Below, in pieces: positions 4,145 to 23,030 of a stretch of DNA of 26,381 bases. Position 1 is the first letter of the stretch, and every line of letters starts with the position of its first letter. The stretch is taken from IMG/VR virus record IMGVR_UViG_3300007351_000576, positions 1 through 26,381 of that record. One strand, given 5' to 3'. Under the pieces are notes generated by a model, which saw only the letters and a program-made list of their open reading frames with translations, did no database searches and was not told where the DNA came from. Source of the stretch: a virus. The position numbers were made by a program, and so were the translations under genes.

Positions 4145-4486
4145 ATGAAAATGTTCGATCCAGAAAAACTAAGCAGAAGGGATAAAAGAATAATGCAGGC
4201 ATTACTGTATTTTTATCCAAGAAAAAGAAGTGCATTCCATATTTATGAGTACATTTCAAAGTTTAATCAAAAAAGTGGAGTAAAGAATCCAAAAGCTCTC
4301 GGTCACATATTATCTCGATTTCCAGTCAAGGCATCACTCACCGTATTTCAATCATATGTCGACAAGAATATCTCAGGAAGCAGGTTTGTAAGATTGTATG
4401 TTCTTGATGATTCCTTTGTAAAGAAATATTATAAAGAAAAAAACGGACTTCTTGTATTGGTTAAAAAAGAGTCTCCTAAAAAATAA
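4145..4486 (+). CDS. Basic winged-helix-like DNA-binding protein, putative regulator
   Basis: LSRRDKRIMQAL...SAFHIYEYI...NPKALGHILSRF followed by beta-wing-like segment ending VRLYVL; SD AGGAGGT at 4135-4141. Confidence 0.55.
   Translation: MKMFDPEKLSRRDKRIMQALLYFYPRKRSAFHIYEYISKFNQKSGVKNPKALGHILSRFPVKASLTVFQSYVDKNISGSRFVRLYVLDDSFVKKYYKEKNGLLVLVKKESPKK
4424..4443 (+). promoter_or_regulatory. Copy 1 of 20-bp conserved motif (candidate late promoter), upstream of portal gene
   Basis: AAATATTATAAAGAAAAAAA, 1 mismatch to copy at 12931; lies in the 3' end of the winged-helix ORF, 50 nt before ATG 4494. Confidence 0.5.
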
Positions 4487-4493
4487 CTGCTGA

Positions 4494-6536
4494 ATGAACA
4501 TGGAGAATGAAAACAAAGCTTTGATGGTACTCTCCAAAGTAAATGAGGGAGTAAGGCAAACAGCCACGACAATTGATTACAGTAGTGTAAACTATTCAAA
4601 ACTTGAGAATATATACAAAACAGATCAGCTTGTATTTCAAGCAATCAATATCATAAGCACATTCGCAATATCCAAAGGATATGAATACGTTCTTTCTGAA
4701 AGCACTGATGAAAATATAGAGATGAAAGATAAGATTATAACACTTGACAATTCTGTTGGACTTCCAAAACTATTGACGGATATTGTTAGACATCTGCACA
4801 TTTATGGAAATGCTTATCTTGAGATTGTTTATTCAAGAACTGATAAAAAGAAAGTTGTAGGTCTTGCATTAATTGATCCAAAGACAATCGCTTTCAAGAA
4901 GAAAAGCACAGGAGAATTGGATCTTGACGAAAGTGGGGGTATCACAGGGTTTGTTCAGACGGTAAATGCGAAGAAAATAGATCTTACCCCAGAACAAGTA
5001 ATTCATTTCAGGATAAATACGATTGCTGATTCTCTAACAGGCACGGGTGTAATTGAGCCATTAGCCAAAATTATAGAAGCTAAACGAAACATAGAGATAG
5101 GACTTGCAGAAGCAGTGTACCGTCATGGATTTCCACAATTTCATGTAAAGCTTGGAGATAGTGAACATCAACCAACAGGAGATCAAGTAACCGAAGAATC
5201 AGAGAAGTACAAGCGGATAAATTCTAAATCAGAATTCGTTACGCCCTATTATTATGACATTAAAGTATTGGAAGCTCCAGGACTAAAAGGTGGAGAAAGT
5301 TATCTTAAATATTTCATAGACCAGATTGTTGCAGGGACAGGTGTTCCTCAAACAATTCTCTTAGGAAGCGGAGAATATAGCAATAGATCATCATCAGTTT
5401 CTCAGCAAGAAAACTTCTTTTTATACATCGCAGGAATTCAGAGTCTTGTTGCAGAAACGCTGCACAAAGAATTATTCACGAAAGTAATTGGACTTGACGA
5501 ATGTCCTGTATTTATGATCTTTAATTCATTACAAACTAAGTCAGATCTTGAACTTGCACAAGAGCGAGAGATTTATCTGAAATATGGCGTTTTAACTCCT
5601 GATGAAGTCAGGCAGGATATGGGCTTAGAACCTATTTCTACACCCCCCAAGGATGAGCAACCCTTTCCTGATCAGTCAGGAGACTTTTTTTCTCAATTCC
5701 TAAATGATAAGGATTTGATGATAACTCCCGACACTGACTTTCATTTCAAAATAACAGAAGAACTTGATTTTGGAGGGGTACTCAAAGAATTATCACTTCC
5801 CATAAGGTCAAGATTCATCGCAGATCAGCAAATACTAACTCATAAGATCAATAAAGTAATGGATAAGGCAAGATCTAAGATAATCAAAGAAATAGACTCC
5901 AACACTCAAGATGAGAATCAATCAATGGCAAGAGAAGATATTCTTATTGATTCTGAACTTCTAGGACCTGAAAGAGATGCACTTGTTGCTGCCATATTCA
6001 TCGATTCTAAGAAGAAATTCAAACAAGGAATCAAACTGGGAGAGAATTTTATCAAGAAACAATATCCTCAAGTTGCAGGAATAAAAGTCAAAAGCACAAT
6101 TAACGAACAAGCTATCAGAGCTCTTGATTTACGATCCAGTCAATTGGCCAATAAAGTGAACGAGGATCTTCTTAATGCCACGCAAATAGCAATACGTGAT
6201 GGCATAATGGCCAGGAAAGGAGCAAGACAACTAAAAGAAGACATCGAGGCTATCTTTGAGAAATACGGTGGTGCTGCTGACAGATTTAACAGCATAGGAA
6301 CAAGAGCAGAACTCATCGCAAGAACAGAATTACAGAGAGCATTTATTGAGGGTAATATTCAATCTTTCAAAGAACTTGGAGTTGCTAATTTGCAAATGTC
6401 AGTAAATCCTGATGCCTGTGAGCAATGCATTGAATTAGCATCTCAAAATCAAAATACTTCTATTCATTTATCCGATGGAATTATTCCTGTTCATCCACGA
6501 TGCAGATGTGGGTGGGTTGTTAATATGATGAAGTAA
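4494..6536 (+). CDS. Portal protein fused to C-terminal Mu gpF / SPP1 gp7-like head morphogenesis domain
   Basis: Portal motifs HLHIYGNAYLEIV, VIHFRIN...GTGVIEPL, GVLTPDEVRQDMGLEP; then MuF motifs RAELIARTELQRA, CEQC, PVHPRCRC in one uninterrupted frame. Confidence 0.9.
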   Translation: MNMENENKALMVLSKVNEGVRQTATTIDYSSVNYSKLENIYKTDQLVFQAINIISTFAISKGYEYVLSESTDENIEMKDKIITLDNSVGLPKLLTDIVRHLHIYGNAYLEIVYSRTDKKKVVGLALIDPKTIAFKKKSTGELDLDESGGITGFVQTVNAKKIDLTPEQVIHFRINTIADSLTGTGVIEPLAKIIEAKRNIEIGLAEAVYRHGFPQFHVKLGDSEHQPTGDQVTEESEKYKRINSKSEFVTPYYYDIKVLEAPGLKGGESYLKYFIDQIVAGTGVPQTILLGSGEYSNRSSSVSQQENFFLYIAGIQSLVAETLHKELFTKVIGLDECPVFMIFNSLQTKSDLELAQEREIYLKYGVLTPDEVRQDMGLEPISTPPKDEQPFPDQSGDFFSQFLNDKDLMITPDTDFHFKITEELDFGGVLKELSLPIRSRFIADQQILTHKINKVMDKARSKIIKEIDSNTQDENQSMAREDILIDSELLGPERDALVAAIFIDSKKKFKQGIKLGENFIKKQYPQVAGIKVKSTINEQAIRALDLRSSQLANKVNEDLLNATQIAIRDGIMARKGARQLKEDIEAIFEKYGGAADRFNSIGTRAELIARTELQRAFIEGNIQSFKELGVANLQMSVNPDACEQCIELASQNQNTSIHLSDGIIPVHPRCRCGWVVNMMK

Positions 6537-6610: not shown

Positions 6611-7669
6611 ATGAAACAAGTAATCGCTATCATATGTTTGATTCTTGTAGTTTTTATGGTTGGATGCTCGGCACCAACAGCACAAGATCAAAAGACAACT
6701 GAACAAACAACAAACACTGCTCCAACTCAAGAGACAAAAACTCAAGATACAGGGATTATTAACAAAGTCATCGACTCATTCTCATCAGATGCATCAAAAC
6801 TTGAACGAGATTTCAAAGCAATGAATGATGAAAATCAAACTTTCTTCACAAATGTTCAAATAAGTAAAGATGGTCAAGATATAAAAATGGACTTTACAGT
6901 GACACCTAATGCAACATCCAAAATGATCTTAAATATATTCACTCTCGGAATAAGCATAAAGACTTACAACGTAACACAAGGCTTTGAGAATCTAAAAATC
7001 AATTATTTAAATGACAAGAAACAGATTCTTGGTTCTATGACTATCCCTAAAAAAGCAATAAAAGACGTAGCTGATTACTCTGCAACAAATAAGGATGCAG
7101 ACTTTATGGACAATCCTTATGTAGAAGCATTTTGGAAAATATCTCAAAGAATGTATGATGAATCCGTGCCAGAATTAATTCCTGCATCAATGGCTGAAGG
7201 AATGTTTGGTGGATTTGGGTCAGATGCAGATGACATTGCAGATGCATTAACTAAGACAGTAACCCATTTAGAAATTGATTGCAACTATGCAAAGAATTGG
7301 GATGCAGATGCTGACGATGATGGAATCACTTACTCGGTTAAACCATTAGCTGCAGACGGCACAGTAGTTCCTATTGAAGGATCTTTTGATACCAAAGTGT
7401 ATGAGAAAGTACAAACTGACAATTGGGATTATGTAAAAGGAAAACTATTATACACCCAAAATGGCGATTTAAAAGGTCAAGACAGATTACAATATTTTGA
7501 TACATGGGATGGATATAGTATTCAACTTGCATGGGATGATGTCGAACCATTCATGGCTTCAAGTAGTAATTATGGAATTATGTATGTTACATATACTGAC
7601 TTAAATGGCAAATCATTTGAAGCTAAAACTGGGGAAGACTCATTTGGCGGATGCCAATTAAGAGAATAA
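6611..7669 (+). CDS. Secreted lipoprotein, accessory (moron-like) gene
   Basis: MKQVIAIICLILVVFMVGC signal peptide with lipobox Cys, Thr/Gln-rich linker, acidic NWDADADDDG motif; flanked by its own TATA-like and T-rich signals. Confidence 0.85.
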   Translation: MKQVIAIICLILVVFMVGCSAPTAQDQKTTEQTTNTAPTQETKTQDTGIINKVIDSFSSDASKLERDFKAMNDENQTFFTNVQISKDGQDIKMDFTVTPNATSKMILNIFTLGISIKTYNVTQGFENLKINYLNDKKQILGSMTIPKKAIKDVADYSATNKDADFMDNPYVEAFWKISQRMYDESVPELIPASMAEGMFGGFGSDADDIADALTKTVTHLEIDCNYAKNWDADADDDGITYSVKPLAADGTVVPIEGSFDTKVYEKVQTDNWDYVKGKLLYTQNGDLKGQDRLQYFDTWDGYSIQLAWDDVEPFMASSSNYGIMYVTYTDLNGKSFEAKTGEDSFGGCQLRE

Positions 7670-7697
7670 TTCTTTTATATTTTTTTACTTCTTTTTT
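7670..7697 (+). terminator. Oligo-T terminator after lipoprotein gene
   Basis: TTCTTTTATATTTTTTTACTTCTTTTTT directly after the TAA; archaeal terminators are oligo-T tracts. Confidence 0.65.
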
Positions 7698-7709
7698 GTG
7701 CAATACCCT

Positions 7710-7729
7710 AAATAATATTAAGAAAAAAA
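7710..7729 (+). promoter_or_regulatory. Copy 2 of 20-bp conserved motif (candidate late promoter), upstream of protease-scaffold-capsid genes
   Basis: AAATAATATTAAGAAAAAAA ending 15 nt before ATG 7745; no SD in the gap. Confidence 0.65.
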
Positions 7730-7744
7730 TAGAATTCTTCAGCT

Positions 7745-8365
7745 ATGGCTGAATTAGTTATCAAGGAAATTTACGAGTTCATCAACTCAGTAGAAACGAA
7801 AAAGGAAGATTCTAAGGAGATGATAGAGAACTTTCTCGCAAACAACAGCGTAACTCCTAAAATCAAATCACTTTCACGACAGCTTGAACACATACATCTT
7901 TCTGAATTTAAGATCCATCAAGTCCTTGCAGAAGGCTCAAACCTGAGGATATCGGGAATTGCAATAAGTGAAGGCACATGGAATGGCATATTCTATCCCG
8001 CAGAAGAACTTGAAAAAGCATATATTGGTCTTGGAAACAAACCTTTGAGAATAGATCACTCAACCAGCACGAGAGACATCGTTGGAAAAGTAATCAAATC
8101 CACATGGATAGTTCCAAAAAAATGGATAGAATTTGAAGCAATTGTAACCGATGGGGATATAATTCAGAAACTTCTGAACAATCTCATCGAATCTGTGAGT
8201 GTTGGTGTGTTGATAGATAATGTCGAGGAGAATGGAGTCCAAATAGCTCGCAATCTCGAATTTAAAGAATTAAGTCTTGTTGATGATCCTGCATGCAAAG
8301 ATGCAAGAATCAACCCGATAGAAAATGGAGGCAATGATCAAAATGGCGGAAGTCAAAGAAATTGA
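7745..8365 (+). CDS. Prohead (capsid maturation) protease
   Basis: ISGIAISEGTWNG, KPLRIDH (catalytic His candidate), SVSVG (catalytic Ser candidate), FKELSLVDDPAC; position between portal and capsid. Confidence 0.85.
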   Translation: MAELVIKEIYEFINSVETKKEDSKEMIENFLANNSVTPKIKSLSRQLEHIHLSEFKIHQVLAEGSNLRISGIAISEGTWNGIFYPAEELEKAYIGLGNKPLRIDHSTSTRDIVGKVIKSTWIVPKKWIEFEAIVTDGDIIQKLLNNLIESVSVGVLIDNVEENGVQIARNLEFKELSLVDDPACKDARINPIENGGNDQNGGSQRN

Positions 8366-8804
8366 ACAGGCTAAAACCCTATTGAAGAAAGCCGCTGAAG
8401 AGCTTGCAGCAAAAGAACAAGATATTGCAATGCTAAATCAGGAAATATCTTCAAAGGACAAACTTATCTCGGAACTGACAGCAAAACACGAGAAGTTGAT
8501 GAAAGATTTTGAAACAGTAACAACTGAACTCAAGCAGATAAAACAAGCTGCAAGAGACATCGCATTGAAAGAAATAATCGATGCTGAAGAAAAGCTTGGA
8601 GTGCTTGAAACAAACAAAGAGCAAAGACTCAATGAACTGAGAGCACTTGACGACAAGGGCGGATTTGAAGCATATGCAAAGCAGACAAAAAGAATGCTTG
8701 ATCTACACAAAAGCATAGGCGACAGAAAGTCCCTGATCAACAATTCAAACCAGGCAACTGACAAGCGAAAAGAAATTGCATCGGTACTGGGAATGGAGAA
8801 CTAA
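8343..8804 (+). CDS. Coiled-coil scaffolding protein
   Basis: Long charged heptad-rich helix; position between protease and capsid genes; ATG 8343 preferred over 8325/8334 from spacing to GGAGG at 8327-8331. Confidence 0.7.
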   Translation: MAEVKEIEQAKTLLKKAAEELAAKEQDIAMLNQEISSKDKLISELTAKHEKLMKDFETVTTELKQIKQAARDIALKEIIDAEEKLGVLETNKEQRLNELRALDDKGGFEAYAKQTKRMLDLHKSIGDRKSLINNSNQATDKRKEIASVLGMEN

Positions 8805-8817
8805 GAGGTGAATCAAA

Positions 8818-9192
8818 ATGACATATGATATCATGATTGACGACGGAAAGAATCCAAGCATGCTCGTTGCAACAGGAAACCTTACCAAAGGACAGCTTGT
8901 TGGACTAACAGTCCAGCCAGCATCTGCACAAGCAGACATACTTGGAGTCAGCCTAAAAGACACTCCACAAGGAAACCCTGCATCAATTGGATGCATCGGA
9001 ACATTCTATGTGGATGTATCAGTCGCAGCTTCAGCAACCCTGAATGTCGGGGATGAACTTGAAGTCAAAGACAACGCAACACTGCAAGCAAAAAACACAG
9101 GAGTCGCAGTGGCCAAAGCATACGAGAAGATAGACAACTCGACTGGCGGTAGCCCAGTGACAAGGAAGATTCCTGTAAAAATCGTGAAATAA
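8818..9192 (+). CDS. Capsid cement/decoration protein, DUF2190-like
   Basis: ATGNLTKGQLVG...ILGVSLKD...G...LNVGDEL...VAVAKA pattern; directly upstream of capsid gene; SD GAGGTGA. Confidence 0.7.
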   Translation: MTYDIMIDDGKNPSMLVATGNLTKGQLVGLTVQPASAQADILGVSLKDTPQGNPASIGCIGTFYVDVSVAASATLNVGDELEVKDNATLQAKNTGVAVAKAYEKIDNSTGGSPVTRKIPVKIVK

Positions 9193-9208: not shown

Positions 9209-10015
9209 ATGAAAACAATGCAAGAACTATTTTCGAGCCAAGACGCTGCACCTCTCATCAAGGAAGTCATCGACTCCAACGTGTTTAAGGTTGCAGGCAG
9301 AGAAAGAGTAGGAAGAAAGATCGTGAAACTCATAACCTTGAGTGAAGGATCTGCACTGAAAATCCCTAAGATGGGAGCAGGACAAGCATATGTGATTCCA
9401 GAACTGGGAGCAATCCCTATGGATGTCAGCACTTTCAACGAAGTTGTTGTAACACCATATAAGATCGGAAAAGCGTTTGCTATTCCAAAAGAAGCCATCG
9501 AAGATTCTGCCTTTGATGTTGTCAGATTGAAAGCTGACATGGCTGCAGAAGATGTGGCAAGAAAAGAAGATGAGGAAATCTTCCGAGTATTGATGAACAC
9601 ATCGAATACAGTCTCGCCAAAGACTGCGGGACAATTTGTTCAGGAAGACGTTGTCACCCTGAGAAATGGAGTAAATAGGCACAGCTACAAAGCAGCATGG
9701 CTTGTTGCACATCCTGATGACTTGGCAAAGCTTGAAAAAGATCTTATCAGTAAGGGCTATAAGGCATTTGACAGGCTTGATGAGACAGGAATCATAGGAA
9801 ATGTTGCTGGACTTCAAGTAGTTGAAACCACTGCAGTAGAACCAGGCACAATTCTTGCTTTAGACAGCAGAGCTTGTGTATTGGTTGAAAGAAGACCTCT
9901 CTCAACAGAGAACTTCACAGATCCATTGCGAGATCTTGCTGCTGGAGTAACAATTACTGAAAGAGTAGCACCTGCAGTACTTGATGACAATGCAGTCTCA
10001 AAGATGACCTTGTAA
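9209..10015 (+). CDS. Major capsid protein, compact HK97 fold (268 aa)
   Basis: E-loop AYVIPELGAIP, VTPYKIGKAFAIPKEAIED, spine helix MAAEDVARKEDEEIF, WLVAHPDD, NVAGLQVVET; strong SD GAGGAGG. Confidence 0.88.
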   Translation: MKTMQELFSSQDAAPLIKEVIDSNVFKVAGRERVGRKIVKLITLSEGSALKIPKMGAGQAYVIPELGAIPMDVSTFNEVVVTPYKIGKAFAIPKEAIEDSAFDVVRLKADMAAEDVARKEDEEIFRVLMNTSNTVSPKTAGQFVQEDVVTLRNGVNRHSYKAAWLVAHPDDLAKLEKDLISKGYKAFDRLDETGIIGNVAGLQVVETTAVEPGTILALDSRACVLVERRPLSTENFTDPLRDLAAGVTITERVAPAVLDDNAVSKMTL

Positions 10016-10039
10016 AATAGGTCATCATATTATTTTTTT
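10003..10039 (+). terminator. Hairpin plus oligo-T terminator/attenuator between capsid gene and its paralogue
   Basis: GATGACCT (10003-10010) is the exact reverse complement of AGGTCATC (10019-10026); the 8-nt loop holds the capsid stop codon; T7 run at 10033-10039. Confidence 0.65.
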
Positions 10040-10053
10040 ATAGGTGACTCTAC

Positions 10054-10791
10054 ATGGATCTAACTACTGTCAAGTCTAAGGTACTGCTTGAAGCAGGGAA
10101 GTTTCGTATAGGTCCACGAGTTTTAAGACTGCAACAACAAAAGGATGGCTCTGCAGTAAAGATAAGTAAGATCAAAAATGTGAACGGTGCAATTGTACCT
10201 ATTTTAGGTACAGCTCCAATATCTCTTTTTGATGTCGAGTCAGTTGTTGTGTTCCCTCTGACCATTAAAGCAACAATTCTATTTTCTGAGGAATGTTTTG
10301 AAGACAATGACTTAAATGAAATGCTTCAAAAGTCAATCAAGGAAAGTTTTATTCTTGCAGAAATAGAGAATAAAATAGTTGTTGAAACATTGATTGCAGG
10401 AGCAGGAAAAAAGATAACTGCTGAAACAAAACAAGATGTAAGAGAAAAGCCAATACTTGACAATTTTATTTCTGCAATAAAATTTATTGAAGACAATAAG
10501 TACCATCCTGATGCAATTCTTATTAATCCGCAAATTGCAGAAACATTAAGACAAAGAGATGAACTAAAAGAGAAACTCTTAGCTTATGCTATTGAAGTCA
10601 TTATCGATACTTCTGTGCCTGAAAATATTGTCATAATTCTTGACTCTGCAAATGCTGGACTGATTATTGAAAGAGTCTCTCTTGAGATAAGTGATTACTC
10701 TGATCCTTGGCAAAGCAAGAAAGGATTCTTACTGCGAGAGAGAGTTGCACCTGTTGTTCTGAATGGAAACGCTGTGGCGGTGATAGAATAA
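10054..10791 (+). CDS. Second HK97-fold capsid protein paralogue (245 aa)
   Basis: Collinear similarity to the capsid gene, e.g. ERVAPVVLNGNAV vs ERVAPAVLDDNAV and IILDS vs LALDS; PDAILINP; SD AGGTGA. Confidence 0.82.
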   Translation: MDLTTVKSKVLLEAGKFRIGPRVLRLQQQKDGSAVKISKIKNVNGAIVPILGTAPISLFDVESVVVFPLTIKATILFSEECFEDNDLNEMLQKSIKESFILAEIENKIVVETLIAGAGKKITAETKQDVREKPILDNFISAIKFIEDNKYHPDAILINPQIAETLRQRDELKEKLLAYAIEVIIDTSVPENIVIILDSANAGLIIERVSLEISDYSDPWQSKKGFLLRERVAPVVLNGNAVAVIE

Positions 10792-11453
10792 TGGGAATCG
10801 ACACAGAATATCTTGAACAATTGAAAGGATTGATTTCTGAATTAAGAGACTTACTTAGTGCCATCGAAGTAGAATCAGACGGAAGCATTAATGCAAACAT
10901 CAATGGCACAGTAGATGTTGACACTATCTCAATAAAAGATCCGCTAAATGATTATCGTGCCAAAGTAGATGCTGATGGAAAATTACACATAAAAAACGAT
11001 CTTATTCAGTATGAATCTCTTATTATTAGAGATGCATCAAATCCATTGCTAAAAGCTTCTGTAGACGGCTCTGGAAGGCTGCTTGTCGCAACTCCTCCTG
11101 CCACGCCTCCACCTCTAACAACCCCCGTGATAATCACAGCCTTCGGAACAGTCTCAGGAAATGTTGATTCTGCATATACAATAACTAATGGAAAAAGTCT
11201 TGTGATAGGCAGGCTTCTTGCAGGAAGTCAGGAAGCAAACAGTGCATGCAGAGTAACACTTTATGACAATCCCTCAGGTGATGGAGTTACACTCATATTA
11301 ATTGCCACACTTTACGTCAATGGAAACTCTGACAAGTTTGACCTATCAGAAAAGATAACTGGGAATGGAACTCACAAGATAATTCTGCGAAGAACAAATC
11401 TTGGTGGAGGAAGCAAAGAAGTCTTTGGAAGATTTGAAGGGTATGAGGAATAA
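10791..11453 (+). CDS. Putative head fibre/spike protein (220 aa)
   Basis: N-terminal amphipathic helix, three repeats at 32-aa period, Pro/Thr linker TPPATPPPLTTP, beta-rich C-terminal domain; start moved from 10707 to ATG 10791 (TAATG overlap, SD GGCGGTGA). Confidence 0.5.
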   Translation: MGIDTEYLEQLKGLISELRDLLSAIEVESDGSINANINGTVDVDTISIKDPLNDYRAKVDADGKLHIKNDLIQYESLIIRDASNPLLKASVDGSGRLLVATPPATPPPLTTPVIITAFGTVSGNVDSAYTITNGKSLVIGRLLAGSQEANSACRVTLYDNPSGDGVTLILIATLYVNGNSDKFDLSEKITGNGTHKIILRRTNLGGGSKEVFGRFEGYEE

Positions 11454-12567: not shown

Positions 12568-12936
12568 ATGGAAATCGAATCAGAAGACTTTGACAAGATC
12601 GTAGATTATGACATCGGAGTAGATGTAACTCTAATCAGAAAAAGCCAGACCATAGACTCAGACTACGGAAGCCTTGTTTCAAACTCTTTTCAGGAATATA
12701 TAATAAAAGCTGTATGGCAAGAAATTACAGGAAATGAAGAAAGTTTTAGGCCAGAGGGAGAATTCAAGATTGGAGACATCAAATGCTACACTAAAAATGC
12801 ATATGGATCAATAATTCCAACAGCAGAAACAGATACAATCAAGAAAGACAATAAAGAATACAAAATTGTCAAATCAACAGTGAAAACAGTAGGGGAAAAC
12901 GTGATTTATCGTCTTCTTCAACTAAGGCTGAAATAA
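12568..12936 (+). CDS. Head closure/stopper protein (SPP1 gp16-like)
   Basis: GVDVTLIRK...IKAVWQE...GDIKCYT...DTIKKDNKEYKIV beta-barrel pattern; start 12568 preferred, 12535 possible. Confidence 0.7.
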   Translation: MEIESEDFDKIVDYDIGVDVTLIRKSQTIDSDYGSLVSNSFQEYIIKAVWQEITGNEESFRPEGEFKIGDIKCYTKNAYGSIIPTAETDTIKKDNKEYKIVKSTVKTVGENVIYRLLQLRLK

Positions 12937-12950
12937 TATAAAGAAAAAAA
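12931..12950 (+). promoter_or_regulatory. Copy 3 of 20-bp conserved motif (candidate late promoter), upstream of tail genes
   Basis: AAATAATATAAAGAAAAAAA ending 15 nt before ATG 12966; no SD in the gap. Confidence 0.65.
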
Positions 12951-13365: not shown

Positions 13366-13830
13366 ATGGAAAAAGAGCCAATAATAATAGTTCAGGAACT
13401 CCTGAGATCAAACCTATACGATTACAATACTTCTCGCACTTCAAGCTGGATATACCCTGACTTTCCAAAAGTAAACTTAGGAAATGAATCTTATCCAAGA
13501 GTCTCTGTTACTGATTATGATGAGCCAGCAAAAAAGATGAGTGTAGGCACGTCAAATGAAATGCAATCAGTAAACATTGATATCAATGTGTGGATAAAAT
13601 CTGGATTGATATATGAACGTGATGATGAACAGTTTGAAGGAGCAAAGCTTCGTGATGCTATTGCTCGAGAGATTGTTGATGTGTTGAGAACAATGCAAGA
13701 TGTGATGGCAGTCTCAGGACTGCACAACTATGAACGTATAGGAATGAAATCAATCAATTCCGAAGTACCTGAAGGAATACTTCGAAAACAGATTACAGTT
13801 AGATTTCAAAGACCTGTAATCAGAGCATAA
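13366..13830 (+). CDS. Tail terminator/completion protein (SPP1 gp17-like)
   Basis: IYPDFP...YPRVSV...IDINVW...IVDVL pattern; directly upstream of tail tube; start moved from 13288 to ATG 13366 after GAGGA. Confidence 0.7.
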   Translation: MEKEPIIIVQELLRSNLYDYNTSRTSSWIYPDFPKVNLGNESYPRVSVTDYDEPAKKMSVGTSNEMQSVNIDINVWIKSGLIYERDDEQFEGAKLRDAIAREIVDVLRTMQDVMAVSGLHNYERIGMKSINSEVPEGILRKQITVRFQRPVIRA

Positions 13831-13851
13831 AAACTAGGAGGATGATTAACA

Positions 13852-14325
13852 ATGGCAATATTTTTCGGAACTCAAGGAAACATAAAGATCGACACAGTTC
13901 AGAGCAAGAACGTGACAGAATGGAGCTTGTCAACAAGCGGAGATGTAGAGCAGATCAAGACAATAGGCAATTTCACAATATTTGATGAGAAGCCACTTGA
14001 TCTTGTTGAAGGCAGCCTAAGCCTTATCACAGATGATGCACAATTCATCTCAAAGCTATTCGGCGATGTTGAAGAAACTGCAGATACTCCTGCAACAGGA
14101 GACACAACCACAACTGTGACTCTTGGAACTAACAGGATCAAGTTTGATGCAGAATTCCTTTACACTGATGCAAAAGGCAATCAGATGAAAATAGAATGCA
14201 AAGACTGTATCGCAACAGATCACGAATTCAGCAACGAAGCAGAAGGAATCTATGAAGAAACATTCAGCTTCAACGTGAAACCTGAAGATGTGACAATAAC
14301 TCACATCAAAAAAGCAGTTGTGTAA
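13852..14325 (+). CDS. Major tail tube protein
   Basis: FFGTQGNIKI...VTEWSLSTSGDVEQIKTIG...VEGSLS; acidic beta-rich; SD AGGAGGA; position before chaperone and tape measure. Confidence 0.8.
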   Translation: MAIFFGTQGNIKIDTVQSKNVTEWSLSTSGDVEQIKTIGNFTIFDEKPLDLVEGSLSLITDDAQFISKLFGDVEETADTPATGDTTTTVTLGTNRIKFDAEFLYTDAKGNQMKIECKDCIATDHEFSNEAEGIYEETFSFNVKPEDVTITHIKKAVV

Positions 14326-14652
14326 ATGATTATGACTGAAACAATGAAAAAAGAAAGTGAAGCGGTATCCGCAGAAGTGTTTGAACAAACAGACTTTCGC
14401 AACATCAAGATATACAATATGCACAAAGATGTTGTTGCGGAATTCTTTGAATACTGCAAGAAGAATGCAGGAGGAAAACATTCTGCAGGGATACATCTTT
14501 TGCTTTCAAAAGCCAAAGCTTTCGACATGCTCTATGGAATGGATGCACGATTGAGAGCTGTAGAACACCAAGTGGGTTTATTGGTGAATAAACAGAGTGT
14601 CGAGGAACACTCCAAACCCAAACTTGAGATAAAAACAATTGGAGGTGTGTGA
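14326..14652 (+). CDS. Hypothetical protein with ribbon-helix-helix-like N-part and coiled coil
   Basis: NIKIYNMHKDVVAEFFEYCKKNAGGKHSAGIHLLL resembles Arc/FitA-type RHH; LYGMDARLRAVEHQV heptads. Confidence 0.55.
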   Translation: MIMTETMKKESEAVSAEVFEQTDFRNIKIYNMHKDVVAEFFEYCKKNAGGKHSAGIHLLLSKAKAFDMLYGMDARLRAVEHQVGLLVNKQSVEEHSKPKLEIKTIGGV

Positions 14653-14654
14653 TT

Positions 14655-14981
14655 ATGCAAAAATTGAGTATTAATGATTTGTTAAACAAGACTGGTGAAA
14701 AGAAAAGAATCGAAGTACCTTATGACGATGGAGTTGTAGAGATGGAAATAGCTCCAGTCACATTCGGACCTGTAAGCAAGATCCAATCAAAAGGTACGGA
14801 TGATTCAACAATGACTCGTGAAATGATCAAGATAGCAACAGGACTGACGGATGATCAGATTGACAAACTGCCATTAGGATTTGTTCCTGCTCTTGGAGAA
14901 GCAATATCCAAAGCATCAGGACTTGATAAAATGTCCCAGAGGAAATCTGAAAGTTTTCCAAATCCTCAGAAGGTAAACTGA
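14655..14981 (+). CDS. Tail assembly chaperone (lambda gpG analogue)
   Basis: Position before tape measure; GLTDDQIDKLP motif; SD GGAGGTG at 14641-14647. Confidence 0.8.
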   Translation: MQKLSINDLLNKTGEKKRIEVPYDDGVVEMEIAPVTFGPVSKIQSKGTDDSTMTREMIKIATGLTDDQIDKLPLGFVPALGEAISKASGLDKMSQRKSESFPNPQKVN

Positions 14982-14998
14982 TATACATCCTTCTGAGG
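14951..14998 (+). promoter_or_regulatory. Programmed -1 ribosomal frameshift signal
   Basis: A_AGT_TTT at 14951-14957, 6-nt spacer, perfect 10-bp stem CCTCAGAAGG (14964-14973) / CCTTCTGAGG (14989-14998). Confidence 0.65.
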
Positions 14999-15124
14999 CA
15001 CTATCAGATGAGCTGGGAACAAATACATTCCTTGACAATGCCACAGTTTTACTTCATGATATCAGCATACAATGAAGAAATCAAGGAGAAAAACAAGCAG
15101 ATCAAGAAATCAAGGAAGAAATAA
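14951..15124 (+). CDS. Frameshift extension of tail chaperone (lambda gpT analogue, -1 frame; not in ORF track)
   Basis: -1 frame open from 14951 to TAA 15122-15124: KFSKSSEGKLIYILLRHYQMSWEQIHSLTMPQFYFMISAYNEEIKEKNKQIKKSRKK; WEQIHSLT resembles gpT-type motifs. Confidence 0.75.
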   Translation, partial: KFSKSSEGKLIYILLRHYQMSWEQIHSLTMPQFYFMISAYNEEIKEKNKQIKKSRKK

Positions 15125-15158
15125 TTCCTGCGAGGACGGGGTAAAACACTATGGGTAA

Positions 15159-18100
15159 ATGTCAATGGTTGAATCAGTCAGAATTACTTTCAAGGGCGAA
15201 GACAATGTCAGTCCTGCACTGACAAGAATACATTCAGGAATAAATAGTCTTAGCTCCGGCGTTGATTCTGTTGGCAAAACATTCTCTGATTTCAATAAGA
15301 AACTTCTCATAGGATTTACAGCAATAGCAACAGCAGTCACAGCTATTGGAATAAAAGCAGTCAAGAGTTTTGGAGAATTCGACAAACAAATAAGACGAGT
15401 CCAGGTGCTTGCTGGAGGCACTGAAGAAGACTTCAAAAAACTTGCTGATACAGCTTTCAAGCTTGGATCAAGTACTGCTTTCTCTGCACAAGAAGTTGCA
15501 CAAGCATTTGAAGAATTTGCAAAGGCAGGATTTAATGTAAACCAGATTTTAAGAGCATCAGAATCTACTCTTGGACTTGCAACTGCAGGAAATGTTTCAT
15601 TGGCAGAAGCAGTCAGCATCTCAGTTGCAGCAATGAATTCATTCCAGCGAGATGCAGAGGATATGAATGGTGTTGCAACAGTTCTCACGACTACATTCAC
15701 CAACTCAGCCCAAAGCTTGCAAGATCTTGGAGAAGCATTAAAGATTGTCGGACCTCTTGCATCAAGTCTTGGAATAAGCCTTGAAGAAGTAAGTGCTGCT
15801 CTTGGAACACTTGCAAATGTAGGTATTAAAGGAAGTCTTGCAGGAACATCATTAAACCAGGCATTATTACAGCTACTTAGCCCGACTGATGATTCTGCAG
15901 AAGCAATGGAGAATCTTGGAGTAAACTTCTTTACATTAAATGAAGCTGGCCAAGCAGCAAAAGCAACAATCCAAGCAACAAGAGATGAATTCAGCTCATT
16001 AAAAGACAAAGTCAGACAGAGTGATATAGAACTTGCACTACTTGGATCAAAACTTGCAGAAGCCAAAAGACAAATGAAATCATTTGGTGATGAAGCAAAA
16101 GCTCCTGATAAATTATCAAGTTCACTTAGTGGATTGCAGTCAGCTTTTGATGAATCAAGACTAAAAAATACTGAATTAAGAGAATCACTTGAAGCGCAAG
16201 AAAAGACGCTTCAAGATCTAAGAAAGCAAGTTACTGAGGGACAGCAGGAATTTGTTGGATTAAGAGATGCAACTAAACAACTCAATGATGCATTCCAAGA
16301 AATAGATGCATCAACAGTTCAGAAAGCCACAACTCTTGTCAAAATCTTTGAAGTAAGAGGAGCAAGAGCATTTCTGACACTTACAAAAGAACTCGATAAC
16401 TTCAATGAAATATTCAAAACAATCGCATCAACAGAGATAAGAACTGAACTTCTTGACGAATCGAGTCTTAAAGCTGCACTTAGCGCTCAGGATAGCTTCT
16501 CACGACAGTTCGGAATTACATTTGAGAAATTAACTCAGAATGCGACAAAAGTACCCGAAGGCATTGATGAAGCATTAAAGAATTCAAAACTTGACGAGAG
16601 AGCAAGAGATATATTTAGAAATATGAGAAGTGAAGTCAATGCATTAAAGCTTGACAGCGAATCAATAGAAGCTGTTCTTTCTGATTTCCTACCTCTTGAT
16701 TCCGTCAAAGATTTCAGAGAGATCATACAATTAACAGATGCTGACTTTGAAAATTTTCTATTAAGCATCAATGCCTTAAATCAAGATGCACAAACCCTGA
16801 ACAAAACACTTCTTCAAAATCTTGGAAGTGCATTTGAAGAATTACAAGATACTGTAACAACTGCATTTATCAGAATAGGTGGAGCAATAGCCCAAAGACT
16901 CAATTTATCAAGCATAGTAAAGAATATTCAGCAAGCAGTAGAAGACTTCTCAACAGGAGATGGAATAGAAAAACTTGCTGATAAAATAGTAAATGTCATA
17001 AGGCTCATTCAGTCTTTCTTGAAAGGAGTCGGAGAAGGATTCAAACAAGTATTCACACCAGACATTCTTGACAGATTAAAATCAGCATTTGGCACTGCTT
17101 TCTCATCTATGCAAAGCAATGCAGAAGGCTTTGGAAATGTGGTTGGTAGAGTTCTTGGAAGTGTGGTAAAAGGTGGAGCAGAACTCATCACCAGAGTCCT
17201 TAATAGCAATCTTATTGAGAATGCAAGCAATATGTTTTCTCGTCTTGGAAATGTTCTTGAAAAAATAGGACCTACTGTTGGTGCTGTTGCAGCTGGATTT
17301 GTATTATTAACTCCGATTCTTACACCAATAATCTATGTCGTAAGCAAGATTTTCAGTGGATTTGGATTACTCATCAATATCTTGTTATCTTCTGGAAAAG
17401 CTATTGGTGCTCTTGCTGGAGGAACAGCAAAACTCACCACTGGACTTGCTGGAATAACTGCAAAAGTCACAGGAGTAGGAAGTGCAGCTACAACAGCGAC
17501 AGCTACAACAGGAGGATTTCTTGCAAAACTTGGAACAATTGGATCAAGCATTGGAAGCATATTCACTGCAATAGGCAGTGCTCTCGGAGTAAGTGCAGGA
17601 GTAGCTGCTGCTATTGTTGTGGCCATAATAGGAACAATCATCGGGTTCGTAAATCAAGTGAGACAAAACTTCTTAGGACTCGGAGATGATTTCAGGACAA
17701 TATTTGGATTCATCGGAGGAGTTCTTACAGCAATAGGTGCAGGAATCAAAGAAAGTCTTATAGATATAGGAACTCTCATTAAACCAATTTGGGAAGGCAT
17801 CAAAGAAACTTTCAATGGACTCGGTAAAATACTCGCAAGTCTTGTCGCAGTTGTTGTCAAACCATTTGCAAATAGCATAAGAGATGCAGGAGATCAGGGG
17901 TTCAACACATTTGAAATAATCAAGAATGCAGTATCTTTCCTATTTACTCCTCTAAAACTTGTCTTGACAATAGTTGGAAGTGTACTCAAAGCTATTGGAG
18001 CAATACTCAACTTTGTAGGAGATCTCATTGGAGGAATTGTTGAATTTGGTTTTATTGTTGCAGATGCTTTCAAGAGATTTAAGGATGAAGGATTCTCCGC

Positions 18101-22668: not shown

Positions 22669-23016
22669 ATGGTACTGACAAACACAGGAAAACAGCAACT
22701 ACTTGAAGCATTAAAGAGCCAAGTAACTCATTTTGCAATGGGCAGTGGACAGAATACAGATACTGAGTTTGCGACAAGTCTTGGCCAAGAAGTATTCAGA
22801 AAAGATGTCACAGACAAAACCATAGACCAAGAAACAGGTAGCATAGACTTTGAATGCTTTATCGGATCAAGCGAAGGAAACGGGAGCGATTTCTCAGAAC
22901 TTGGACTTCTTGATTCTCCAAGTGGAGGAACTCTGTTTGTTATCACCAATTTCCCTGCAGAGAATAAATCTGCATTACTCGAATGGCTAATTGATATTGT
23001 AATTGAAATAAAATAA
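22669..23016 (+). CDS. Tail-collar/baseplate protein, DUF3751-like, paralogue B
   Basis: LTNTGKQQL...THFAMGSG...TSLGQEVFRK...EGNGSDFSELGL...GTLF...ENK pattern. Confidence 0.6.
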   Translation: MVLTNTGKQQLLEALKSQVTHFAMGSGQNTDTEFATSLGQEVFRKDVTDKTIDQETGSIDFECFIGSSEGNGSDFSELGLLDSPSGGTLFVITNFPAENKSALLEWLIDIVIEIK

Positions 23017-23030
23017 CATAAAGAAAGAAA
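23011..23030 (+). promoter_or_regulatory. Copy 4 of 20-bp conserved motif (candidate late promoter), upstream of receptor-binding protein
   Basis: AAATAACATAAAGAAAGAAA ending 15 nt before ATG 23046; 2 mismatches to copy 3. Confidence 0.55.

Follow-up and report, generated by a model that had tools for sequence, protein, structure and literature searches.

The stretch of DNA analysed here (the window) comprises 26,381 nucleotides, corresponds to positions 1 to 26,381 of the IMG/VR virus record IMGVR_UViG_3300007351_000576, and carries two adjacent genes for HK97-type capsid proteins. The upstream gene (9209..10015, + strand) encodes a major capsid protein of 268 aa, termed MCP1, and the downstream gene (10054..10791, + strand) a diverged HK97-fold paralogue of 245 aa, termed MCP2, a probable penton or vertex subunit. 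MCP2 is proposed to be a second shell protein, whose gene was produced when the HK97-type capsid gene of this virus lineage was duplicated long ago. We lean towards the reading that MCP2 forms the pentamers of the capsid and MCP1 the hexamers. A penton paralogue of this kind would be expected to assemble into homopentamers that occupy the eleven vertices without the portal, with about 55 copies per particle; MCP2 would accordingly be placed at the eleven pentameric vertices within a lattice of MCP1 hexamers, and both pentamer formation and a low copy number are inferred.

MCP1 and MCP2 are true HK97-fold paralogues. MCP1 matched the Pfam family PF05065 (Phage_capsid) above the cut-off (E 3e-21) as well as phrog_10 (E 7e-23), and its AlphaFold2 (AF2) model reached a pLDDT of 82 and a pTM of 0.80. 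MCP2 matched no Pfam family at threshold and gave only weak PHROG major-head matches (E 0.004-0.01); its membership in the HK97-fold superfamily follows from the match to MCP1 and from the predicted fold. The two proteins are collinear (BLASTP; MCP1 residues 21-264, MCP2 residues 6-242), with 26% identity and 47% positives over 250 columns (E 1e-18). The AF2 model of MCP2 (pLDDT 77.5, pTM 0.79) was matched by Foldseek with probability 1.0 and TM scores of 0.6-0.79 to PfV, encapsulins, HK97 gp5 and the MCP of HFTV1. An earlier note on this DNA, made from the letters alone, had placed the two open reading frames (ORFs) at these positions and had described the second as aligning along the length of the first. 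Pairwise alignment and structure prediction bore this out, including the HK97 fold of the second ORF, and the three pairs of motifs quoted in that note were all found in the translations.

Both genes are already on record. The window falls within the published Woesearchaeales tailed provirus QZIT01000006_pro of 51,544 bp (PMC11705971, 2024), and the coordinates of MCP1 and MCP2 agree with its genes 19 (13741-14547) and 20 (14586-15323), both of which are labelled "major capsid protein" in the 2024 supplement, without comment, on the basis of HHpred matches to 6WKK_F (99.97 and 99.95; PMC11705971). Neither a paralogue nor the presence of two MCPs is mentioned in the main text of that paper (PMC11705971). 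What is new is the evidence for an old, lineage-wide and co-diverging duplication in a clade that includes published Woesearchaeales proviruses, together with a domain divergence that fits a separate capsomer.

Homologues of MCP2 were searched for among 5.8 billion proteins, and a HMMER profile search was run against 1.84 billion representatives. The family proved very narrow, with 25 profile matches at E<=1e-3. Homologues fell into 21 clusters of 57-98% identity and 245-251 aa, except for one 216-aa entry covering 83% of the query, and 69 columns were invariant when the MCP2 of the window was aligned with 19 of these clusters. The order cement protein, MCP1, MCP2 was kept in all close relatives sampled (L003-L009, L012-L014), among them a second published Woesearchaeales provirus, QMQO01000002_pro (L003; PMC11705971). 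Beyond these, MCP2-like genes adjoin an MCP1 in L010 and on the contig of P0025. P0024 and P0025 share 30-33% identity with MCP2, to which they are nearer than to MCP1, and the contigs of both hold an MCP1-type gene, three genes away in one case and past a 38-aa ORF in the other. Every sampled member of the clade thus had both capsid genes. Outside the clade, all 67 IMG/VR loci with a capsid protein of <=33% identity to MCP1 had a single HK97 gene within ±4 kb. A tblastn search of MCP2 against 50,697 phage records gave no match, and MCP1 found only remote matches (<=35% identity) in these records. For three further proteins of 245-250 aa (P0028, P0029 and P0043), considered as second copies, no capsid-like neighbour was detected on contigs of only about 1 kb, and the gene following P0031 was rejected as a second capsid copy, being not MCP2-like.

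Codon alignments of eight loci were used to compare the evolution of the two genes. Pairwise identity among relatives was 75-91% for MCP1 and 59-73% for MCP2, and the nonsynonymous substitution rate (dN) of MCP2 was 2-3 times that of MCP1, with ratios to the synonymous rate (dN/dS) of 0.05-0.23 at saturated dS. These alignments indicate that MCP2 is a maintained gene under purifying selection which evolves faster than MCP1. A functionless, decaying duplicate could account for the missing Pfam match of MCP2 at threshold, its lower GC content and its larger share of T-ending codons. Against this stand the 21 homologue clusters with their 69 invariant columns, the low dN/dS, and the retention of MCP2 in relatives down to about 30% identity. 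Decay is effectively refuted by this evidence of conservation and selection, and we give it next to no credence; the pseudogene-like deterioration that the earlier note had named as a finding that would speak against a functional paralogue was not seen, since the homologues are of full length and the pair is retained.

In a maximum-likelihood tree, the MCP2-type proteins formed one clade (SH-aLRT 99) and their partner MCP1s another. Both clades shared the same branching order, namely P0025/P0027, then L010, then the core family, and both were placed on one side of a branch that separates them from 20 single-capsid relatives (SH-aLRT 90). This pattern fits one old duplication within this virus lineage, with subsequent co-divergence of MCP1 and MCP2. 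Given the length of the MCP2 branch, its placement in the tree could be an artefact, and horizontal acquisition keeps a small probability. MCP2 might then be a foreign or alternative capsid gene, gained by recombination and either redundant or serving a different particle. There is a precedent in the ANME-1 ekchuahviruses GBV301 and GBV302 (Nakonvirales), which have two divergent HK97 MCPs, described as unusual among Caudoviricetes, of which MCP-2 is thought to have been acquired horizontally (PMC9894754). Like the present virus, these are tailed, have archaeal hosts and encode two divergent HK97-fold MCPs; in the ekchuahviruses, however, each MCP has its own maturation protease and the two genes are not tandem paralogues (PMC9894754), whereas here a tandem, co-diverging pair shares one protease and one scaffold, and the portal is likewise present in one copy. 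Moreover, the best matches of MCP2 outside its own family were the partner MCP1s, and the two clades group together against the single-capsid relatives. A foreign origin is therefore regarded as highly improbable. In the literature on viruses of Asgard archaea, nanohaloarchaea and Bathyarchaeia, no case of two HK97 MCPs was found; the "two MCPs" reported there have other folds.

The differences between MCP1 and MCP2 are unevenly distributed along the fold. Insertions and deletions are concentrated in the N-arm and the axial (A-) domain. The N-terminus of MCP2 is 15 residues shorter than that of MCP1, with the N-terminal helix retained (residues 3-16, compared with 10-32 in MCP1), and the A-domain is shorter by a net six residues, including a nine-residue deletion in one A-domain helix. 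The statement of the earlier note that MCP2 lacks the N-arm was thus overstated, as only the shortening holds, and the shorter A-domain loop was borne out to a modest extent. Between the two paralogue families, the E-loop (0.34) and the long P-domain hairpin (0.37) showed the highest identity, and the spine helix (0.17) and the A-domain (0.19) the lowest. The E-loop and the P-domain hairpin form contacts between capsomers; through the spine helix and the axial domain, neighbouring subunits pack against each other about the five- or six-fold axis. Divergence in the axial domain and the N-arm, combined with similarity in the inter-capsomer parts, is what would be expected if MCP2 formed capsomers of its own that fit into a lattice of MCP1 hexamers. 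This domain pattern is only suggestive of separate capsomers, as the E-loop and the P-domain hairpin may be conserved in HK97 proteins generally.

The gene order portal, protease, scaffold, MCP, paralogue of phage T4 is the same as here. The gp24 of T4 shares its fold and about 20% identity with gp23, makes the eleven vertices, and was probably duplicated from gp23; mutations that allow gp23 to replace gp24 map to the intra-capsomer interface of the A-domain (PMC9958956). What decides between hexamer and pentamer in T4 thus lies at this A-domain interface, and the A-domain is among the most diverged parts of the pair described here. T4 differs in having a large, prolate head, whose two capsid proteins measure 521 and 427 aa and include insertion domains, and in its bacterial host. 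Evidence of homology to the T4 pair does not go past the shared HK97 fold, and the tree supports a separate duplication within the present lineage.

The Mycobacterium abscessus siphophage Jabs is a closer parallel. Its MCPh (ORF72) forms the hexons and its MCPp (ORF73) only the pentons, as determined by cryo-electron microscopy (bioRxiv 10.64898/2026.07.24.740622). Both viruses are long-tailed and carry an adjacent HK97-fold pair with weak identity between the paralogues (18% in Jabs, 26% here), in which the downstream copy is the shorter one (257 aa in Jabs, 245 aa here). The axial domain of MCPp in Jabs is reduced and has lost a helix; that of MCP2 has lost helix residues, a small change in the same direction. 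The duplications are independent and the lineages unrelated. MCPh of Jabs has 594 aa including a cleaved N-terminal domain, and its T=9 shell is held by a disulfide chainmail without a cement protein; in the present virus, MCP1 has 268 aa, scaffold and cement proteins are encoded by separate genes, the host is archaeal, and the penton role of MCP2 is a proposed one.

As a part of the shell other than the penton, MCP2 might form mixed capsomers with MCP1 or occupy special sites, for example next to the portal. Mixed lattices would also need similar inter-capsomer elements, and similar expression of both proteins would be allowed by the strong Shine-Dalgarno (SD) sequences on both genes and by the lack of a terminator between them in two lineages. 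HK97-fold encapsulin shells of variable composition made of two paralogues exist (PMC12407261), and sphaerolipoviruses with two MCPs are another precedent. However, it is in the axial domain and the N-arm, which make contacts within capsomers, that the two proteins have diverged most and carry indels, and this favours separate homomeric capsomers, and both solved viral cases, T4 and Jabs, are hexon/penton splits. Mixed capsomers or special sites are considered rather unlikely.

Transcription and translation signals were examined in the spacer between the two genes. A perfect 8-bp hairpin (10003..10026, + strand) is formed by GATGACCT (10003-10010) pairing with AGGTCATC (10019-10026), with the MCP1 stop codon TAA (10013-10015) in the loop. 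It is followed, 18 nt past the stop codon, by a run of seven T (10033..10039, + strand), a candidate archaeal oligo-U terminator or attenuator. An SD sequence for MCP2, AGGTGA (10042..10047, + strand), is complementary to the 3' end of the host 16S rRNA (..GGATCACCTCCT) and precedes the start codon ATG at 10054; a good SD-like sequence was present upstream of MCP2 in all eight loci. The hairpin and the T7 run were present just as the earlier note had described them. Folded alone, the 71-nt hairpin stretch was no more stable than shuffled sequences (z -0.9), and folding energy alone was dropped as proof of the hairpin. Its significance rests instead on recurrence in relatives with different sequences. 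The same hairpin arms with shortened loops were found in L012, L007 and L014, and L009 showed a compensatory change from C-G to T-A plus a G-U pair. A different stem (GTGATC/GATCAC) followed by T7-T8 was present in L005, L006 and L008, and yet another stem followed by T5 and T7 in L010.

Oligo-T tracts act as terminators for archaeal RNA polymerase, with an efficiency that is graded (PMC2253867, PMC8716108). Only four runs of at least six T occur on the + strand of the 26.4-kb window, three of them in the approximately 670 nt of intergenic DNA, and in the host genome such runs are about 4-fold more common just downstream of ORFs than inside them. On these sequence grounds, it is reasonable to assume a real terminator signal behind MCP1 in the window. 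Similar hairpin/oligo-T elements were found 3' of the capsid gene in many single-capsid relatives (e.g., L015-L025, L030, L032, L039, L040), so that the element, read in the earlier note as an attenuator between the two paralogues, did not prove to be specific to the paralogue. Hairpin and T7 are best described as a generic terminator or 3' stabiliser after the most abundant structural gene and not as an MCP2-specific regulator. In phage T7, the T-phi-type terminator behind the major capsid gene likewise reduces the number of transcripts that reach the downstream genes. Here, too, the terminator directly follows the most abundant structural gene; unlike T-phi, it is a candidate only and consists of an archaeal-type oligo-T tract with a stop-spanning hairpin.

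A TATA-like motif of 20 bp (AAATAATATAAAGAAAAAAA) was found in four near-identical copies at module boundaries (4424-4443, 7710-7729, 12931-12950 and 23011-23030). Three of the four copies end 15 nt before an ATG, a distance that fits archaeal promoters with leaderless or short-leader late transcripts. The copy at 7710..7729 (+ strand), whose end lies 15 nt upstream of the protease ATG, is a candidate late promoter of the head operon, and the copy at 12931 precedes the tail genes. The spacer between MCP1 and MCP2 contains no copy of the motif. It was also rejected as an MCP2 promoter because the TATA-like TTTTTTTATA lies only about 12-17 nt from the ATG, which is too close. As the gene has an oligo-T/hairpin element upstream and the window shows no separate promoter motif for it, MCP2 probably depends on read-through for its transcription, and the read-through-limited expression suggested in the earlier note is plausible for this virus. 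In the proposed course of expression, MCP1 and MCP2 would belong to one late operon transcribed from the motif at 7710, most transcripts would probably be ended or stabilised behind MCP1 by the stop-spanning hairpin and T7, and MCP2 and the head-completion genes would be expressed from read-through RNA and hence fall into the lower-expression group.

Codon usage was compared among the genes of the window. T-ending codons are more common in MCP2 than in MCP1 (0.38 versus 0.27), as had been noticed before by eye, and the GC content of third codon positions (GC3) is lower (0.24 versus 0.35); the GC content of MCP1 exceeded that of MCP2 in all eight loci, as did its GC3. The highest GC3 values were found for genes expected to be abundantly expressed, i.e., scaffold (0.39), cement (0.39), MCP1 (0.35) and a 157-aa protein (13852-14325; 0.39) that is listed as "tail protein" in the 2024 supplement (PMC11705971). 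MCP2 and the tape measure protein had the lowest value (0.24). The codon adaptation index (CAI), calculated against 24 ribosomal-protein genes, was flat, with the ribosomal-protein genes themselves at the genome median (MCP1 0.717, MCP2 0.695), and was rejected as a proxy for expression. The host ribosomal-protein genes (operon G000:C4:9552-21120) have the average codon usage of the genome; the 1.3-Mb archaeon thus shows no detectable translational selection, and arguments of the CAI type fail for its viruses. The bias towards T-ending codons is real but is no guide to expression level here.

Several points weigh against MCP2 as a penton protein. The role in pentamers is argued by analogy. The change in the A-domain (identity 0.19) has the direction seen in penton paralogues, but the reduction by six residues is small compared with that in Jabs. 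Codon adaptation is uninformative on the expression of MCP2. L003/L013 and L004 have neither hairpin nor T-run and yet keep MCP2 with a good SD sequence, so that comparable expression of MCP1 and MCP2 is possible in these loci. HFTV1, the sole tailed virus of archaea for which an atomic structure exists, builds both pentamers and hexamers of its T=7 shell from one MCP, which means that a virus with a genome of this size can do without a dedicated penton protein. Finally, the second capsid paralogue of rudiviruses is not incorporated in virions. This last case is also a model for MCP2 as a capsid-derived assembly or regulatory factor that acts outside the mature virion, for instance in nucleation, in size determination or as a chaperone-like decoy. 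The 2-3 times faster evolution of MCP2 would agree with such a function, and its truncated N-arm could alter scaffold binding. The MCP2 model, however, has a complete HK97 fold including E-loop and P-domain, the protein is collinear with MCP1 throughout, and its gene is surrounded by structural genes, with translational coupling to a fibre-like gene kept in all relatives. A function outside the virion is judged distinctly improbable.

This fibre-like gene (10791..11453, + strand) encodes a protein of 220 aa, and its ATG overlaps the MCP2 stop codon (TAATG), an overlap that was kept in all loci. The protein consists of a conserved N-terminal helix, one to about five short repeats of the GRLLV type, a Pro-rich hinge (PPxxPP), and a C-terminal beta domain that is variable or absent, as in versions of 109 aa. 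Corresponding genes were located in relatives at L003:4738-5532, L004:4737-5525, L009:4740-5534, L007:4738-5307 and L005:4738-5067. Weak Atlas leads pointed to spike or fibre families, and the protein may be a head fibre. Head-fibre genes of phi29 lie next to the capsid genes although the fibres bind elsewhere, and for this reason the seating of a fibre on MCP2 capsomers is speculation. MCP2 pentons and the coupled fibre-like protein might together form a vertex complex, comparable to the penton base plus fibre of adenovirus or PRD1 but on the HK97-fold shell of a DPANN virus; we hold this to be unlikely. In such a complex, the number of fibre repeats and the distal domain would tune attachment to the surfaces of host or partner cells.

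The host is archaeal (Woesearchaeales, DPANN). Its genome comprises 1.3 Mb in six contigs and includes a full-length archaeal 16S rRNA, and the host of QZIT01000006_pro was assigned to GTDB Woesearchaeales, genus SURF-58 (PMC11705971). The window represents the structural module of a tailed virus, with all genes on one strand. It starts with genes for a methyltransferase, a ParB-N protein, the large terminase, a portal fused to a MuF domain, and a lipoprotein-like protein, and continues with protease candidate, coiled-coil scaffold candidate, cement protein, MCP1, MCP2, the fibre-like gene, and neck and tail genes. The tail module encodes a tape measure protein of 1369 aa, and no tail-sheath gene was present among the genes of the window; an archaeal siphovirus, as proposed in the earlier note, agrees with both host and tail.

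Three further head genes precede MCP1. The prohead protease candidate (7745..8365, + strand; 206 aa), a single-copy gene, gave weak PHROG matches to head maturation proteases and protease-MCP fusions, and the 2024 supplement labels its product as head maturation protease COG3740 (PMC11705971). The gene is shorter, or has a different start, than in relatives, where 298-406 aa are encoded (L003:1058-2278, L004:1376-2290, L005:1319-2215). The scaffold candidate (8325..8804, + strand; 159 aa) had only weak matches of the coiled-coil type, and its position between protease and capsid genes is kept in relatives. The cement or decoration protein (8818..9192, + strand; 124 aa) matched PF09956 (Phage_cement_2) above the cut-off (E 5e-07), and its gene lies immediately upstream of MCP1 in all relatives.

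A T7 run at 5685-5691 is the sole run of at least six T inside a gene of the window; it lies within the portal-MuF fusion ORF (4494-6536), in the linker joining both parts, and might act as internal terminator or slippage site, giving a portal without MuF. The lipoprotein-like gene (6611-7669) between the portal and protease genes is followed by T7/T6 runs at 7680-7697 and is missing at this position in the relatives. In L005, a reverse-transcriptase gene (RVT_1 plus HTH_40; L005:1-26, the upstream gene running off the locus) stands just upstream of the head module and may belong to a diversity-generating retroelement.

For almost every HK97-type capsid, a single protein is believed to build hexamers and pentamers alike. 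For a long time, T4-like phages were the only known source of dedicated vertex paralogues; in 2026, one was shown in a mycobacteriophage. The present pair is a warning for annotation as well, in that an entry of "two major capsid proteins" in a provirus table should not be taken for a duplicate call. With scaffold, cement protein, MCP1 and MCP2, this virus offers a compact system for asking how an HK97 subunit chooses between five-fold and six-fold capsomers. If the proposed role of MCP2 is true, it would be the first candidate vertex protein of an archaeal tailed virus, and the split between hexon and penton proteins would have arisen repeatedly, even where capsid proteins have only about 270 aa and genomes about 50 kb.

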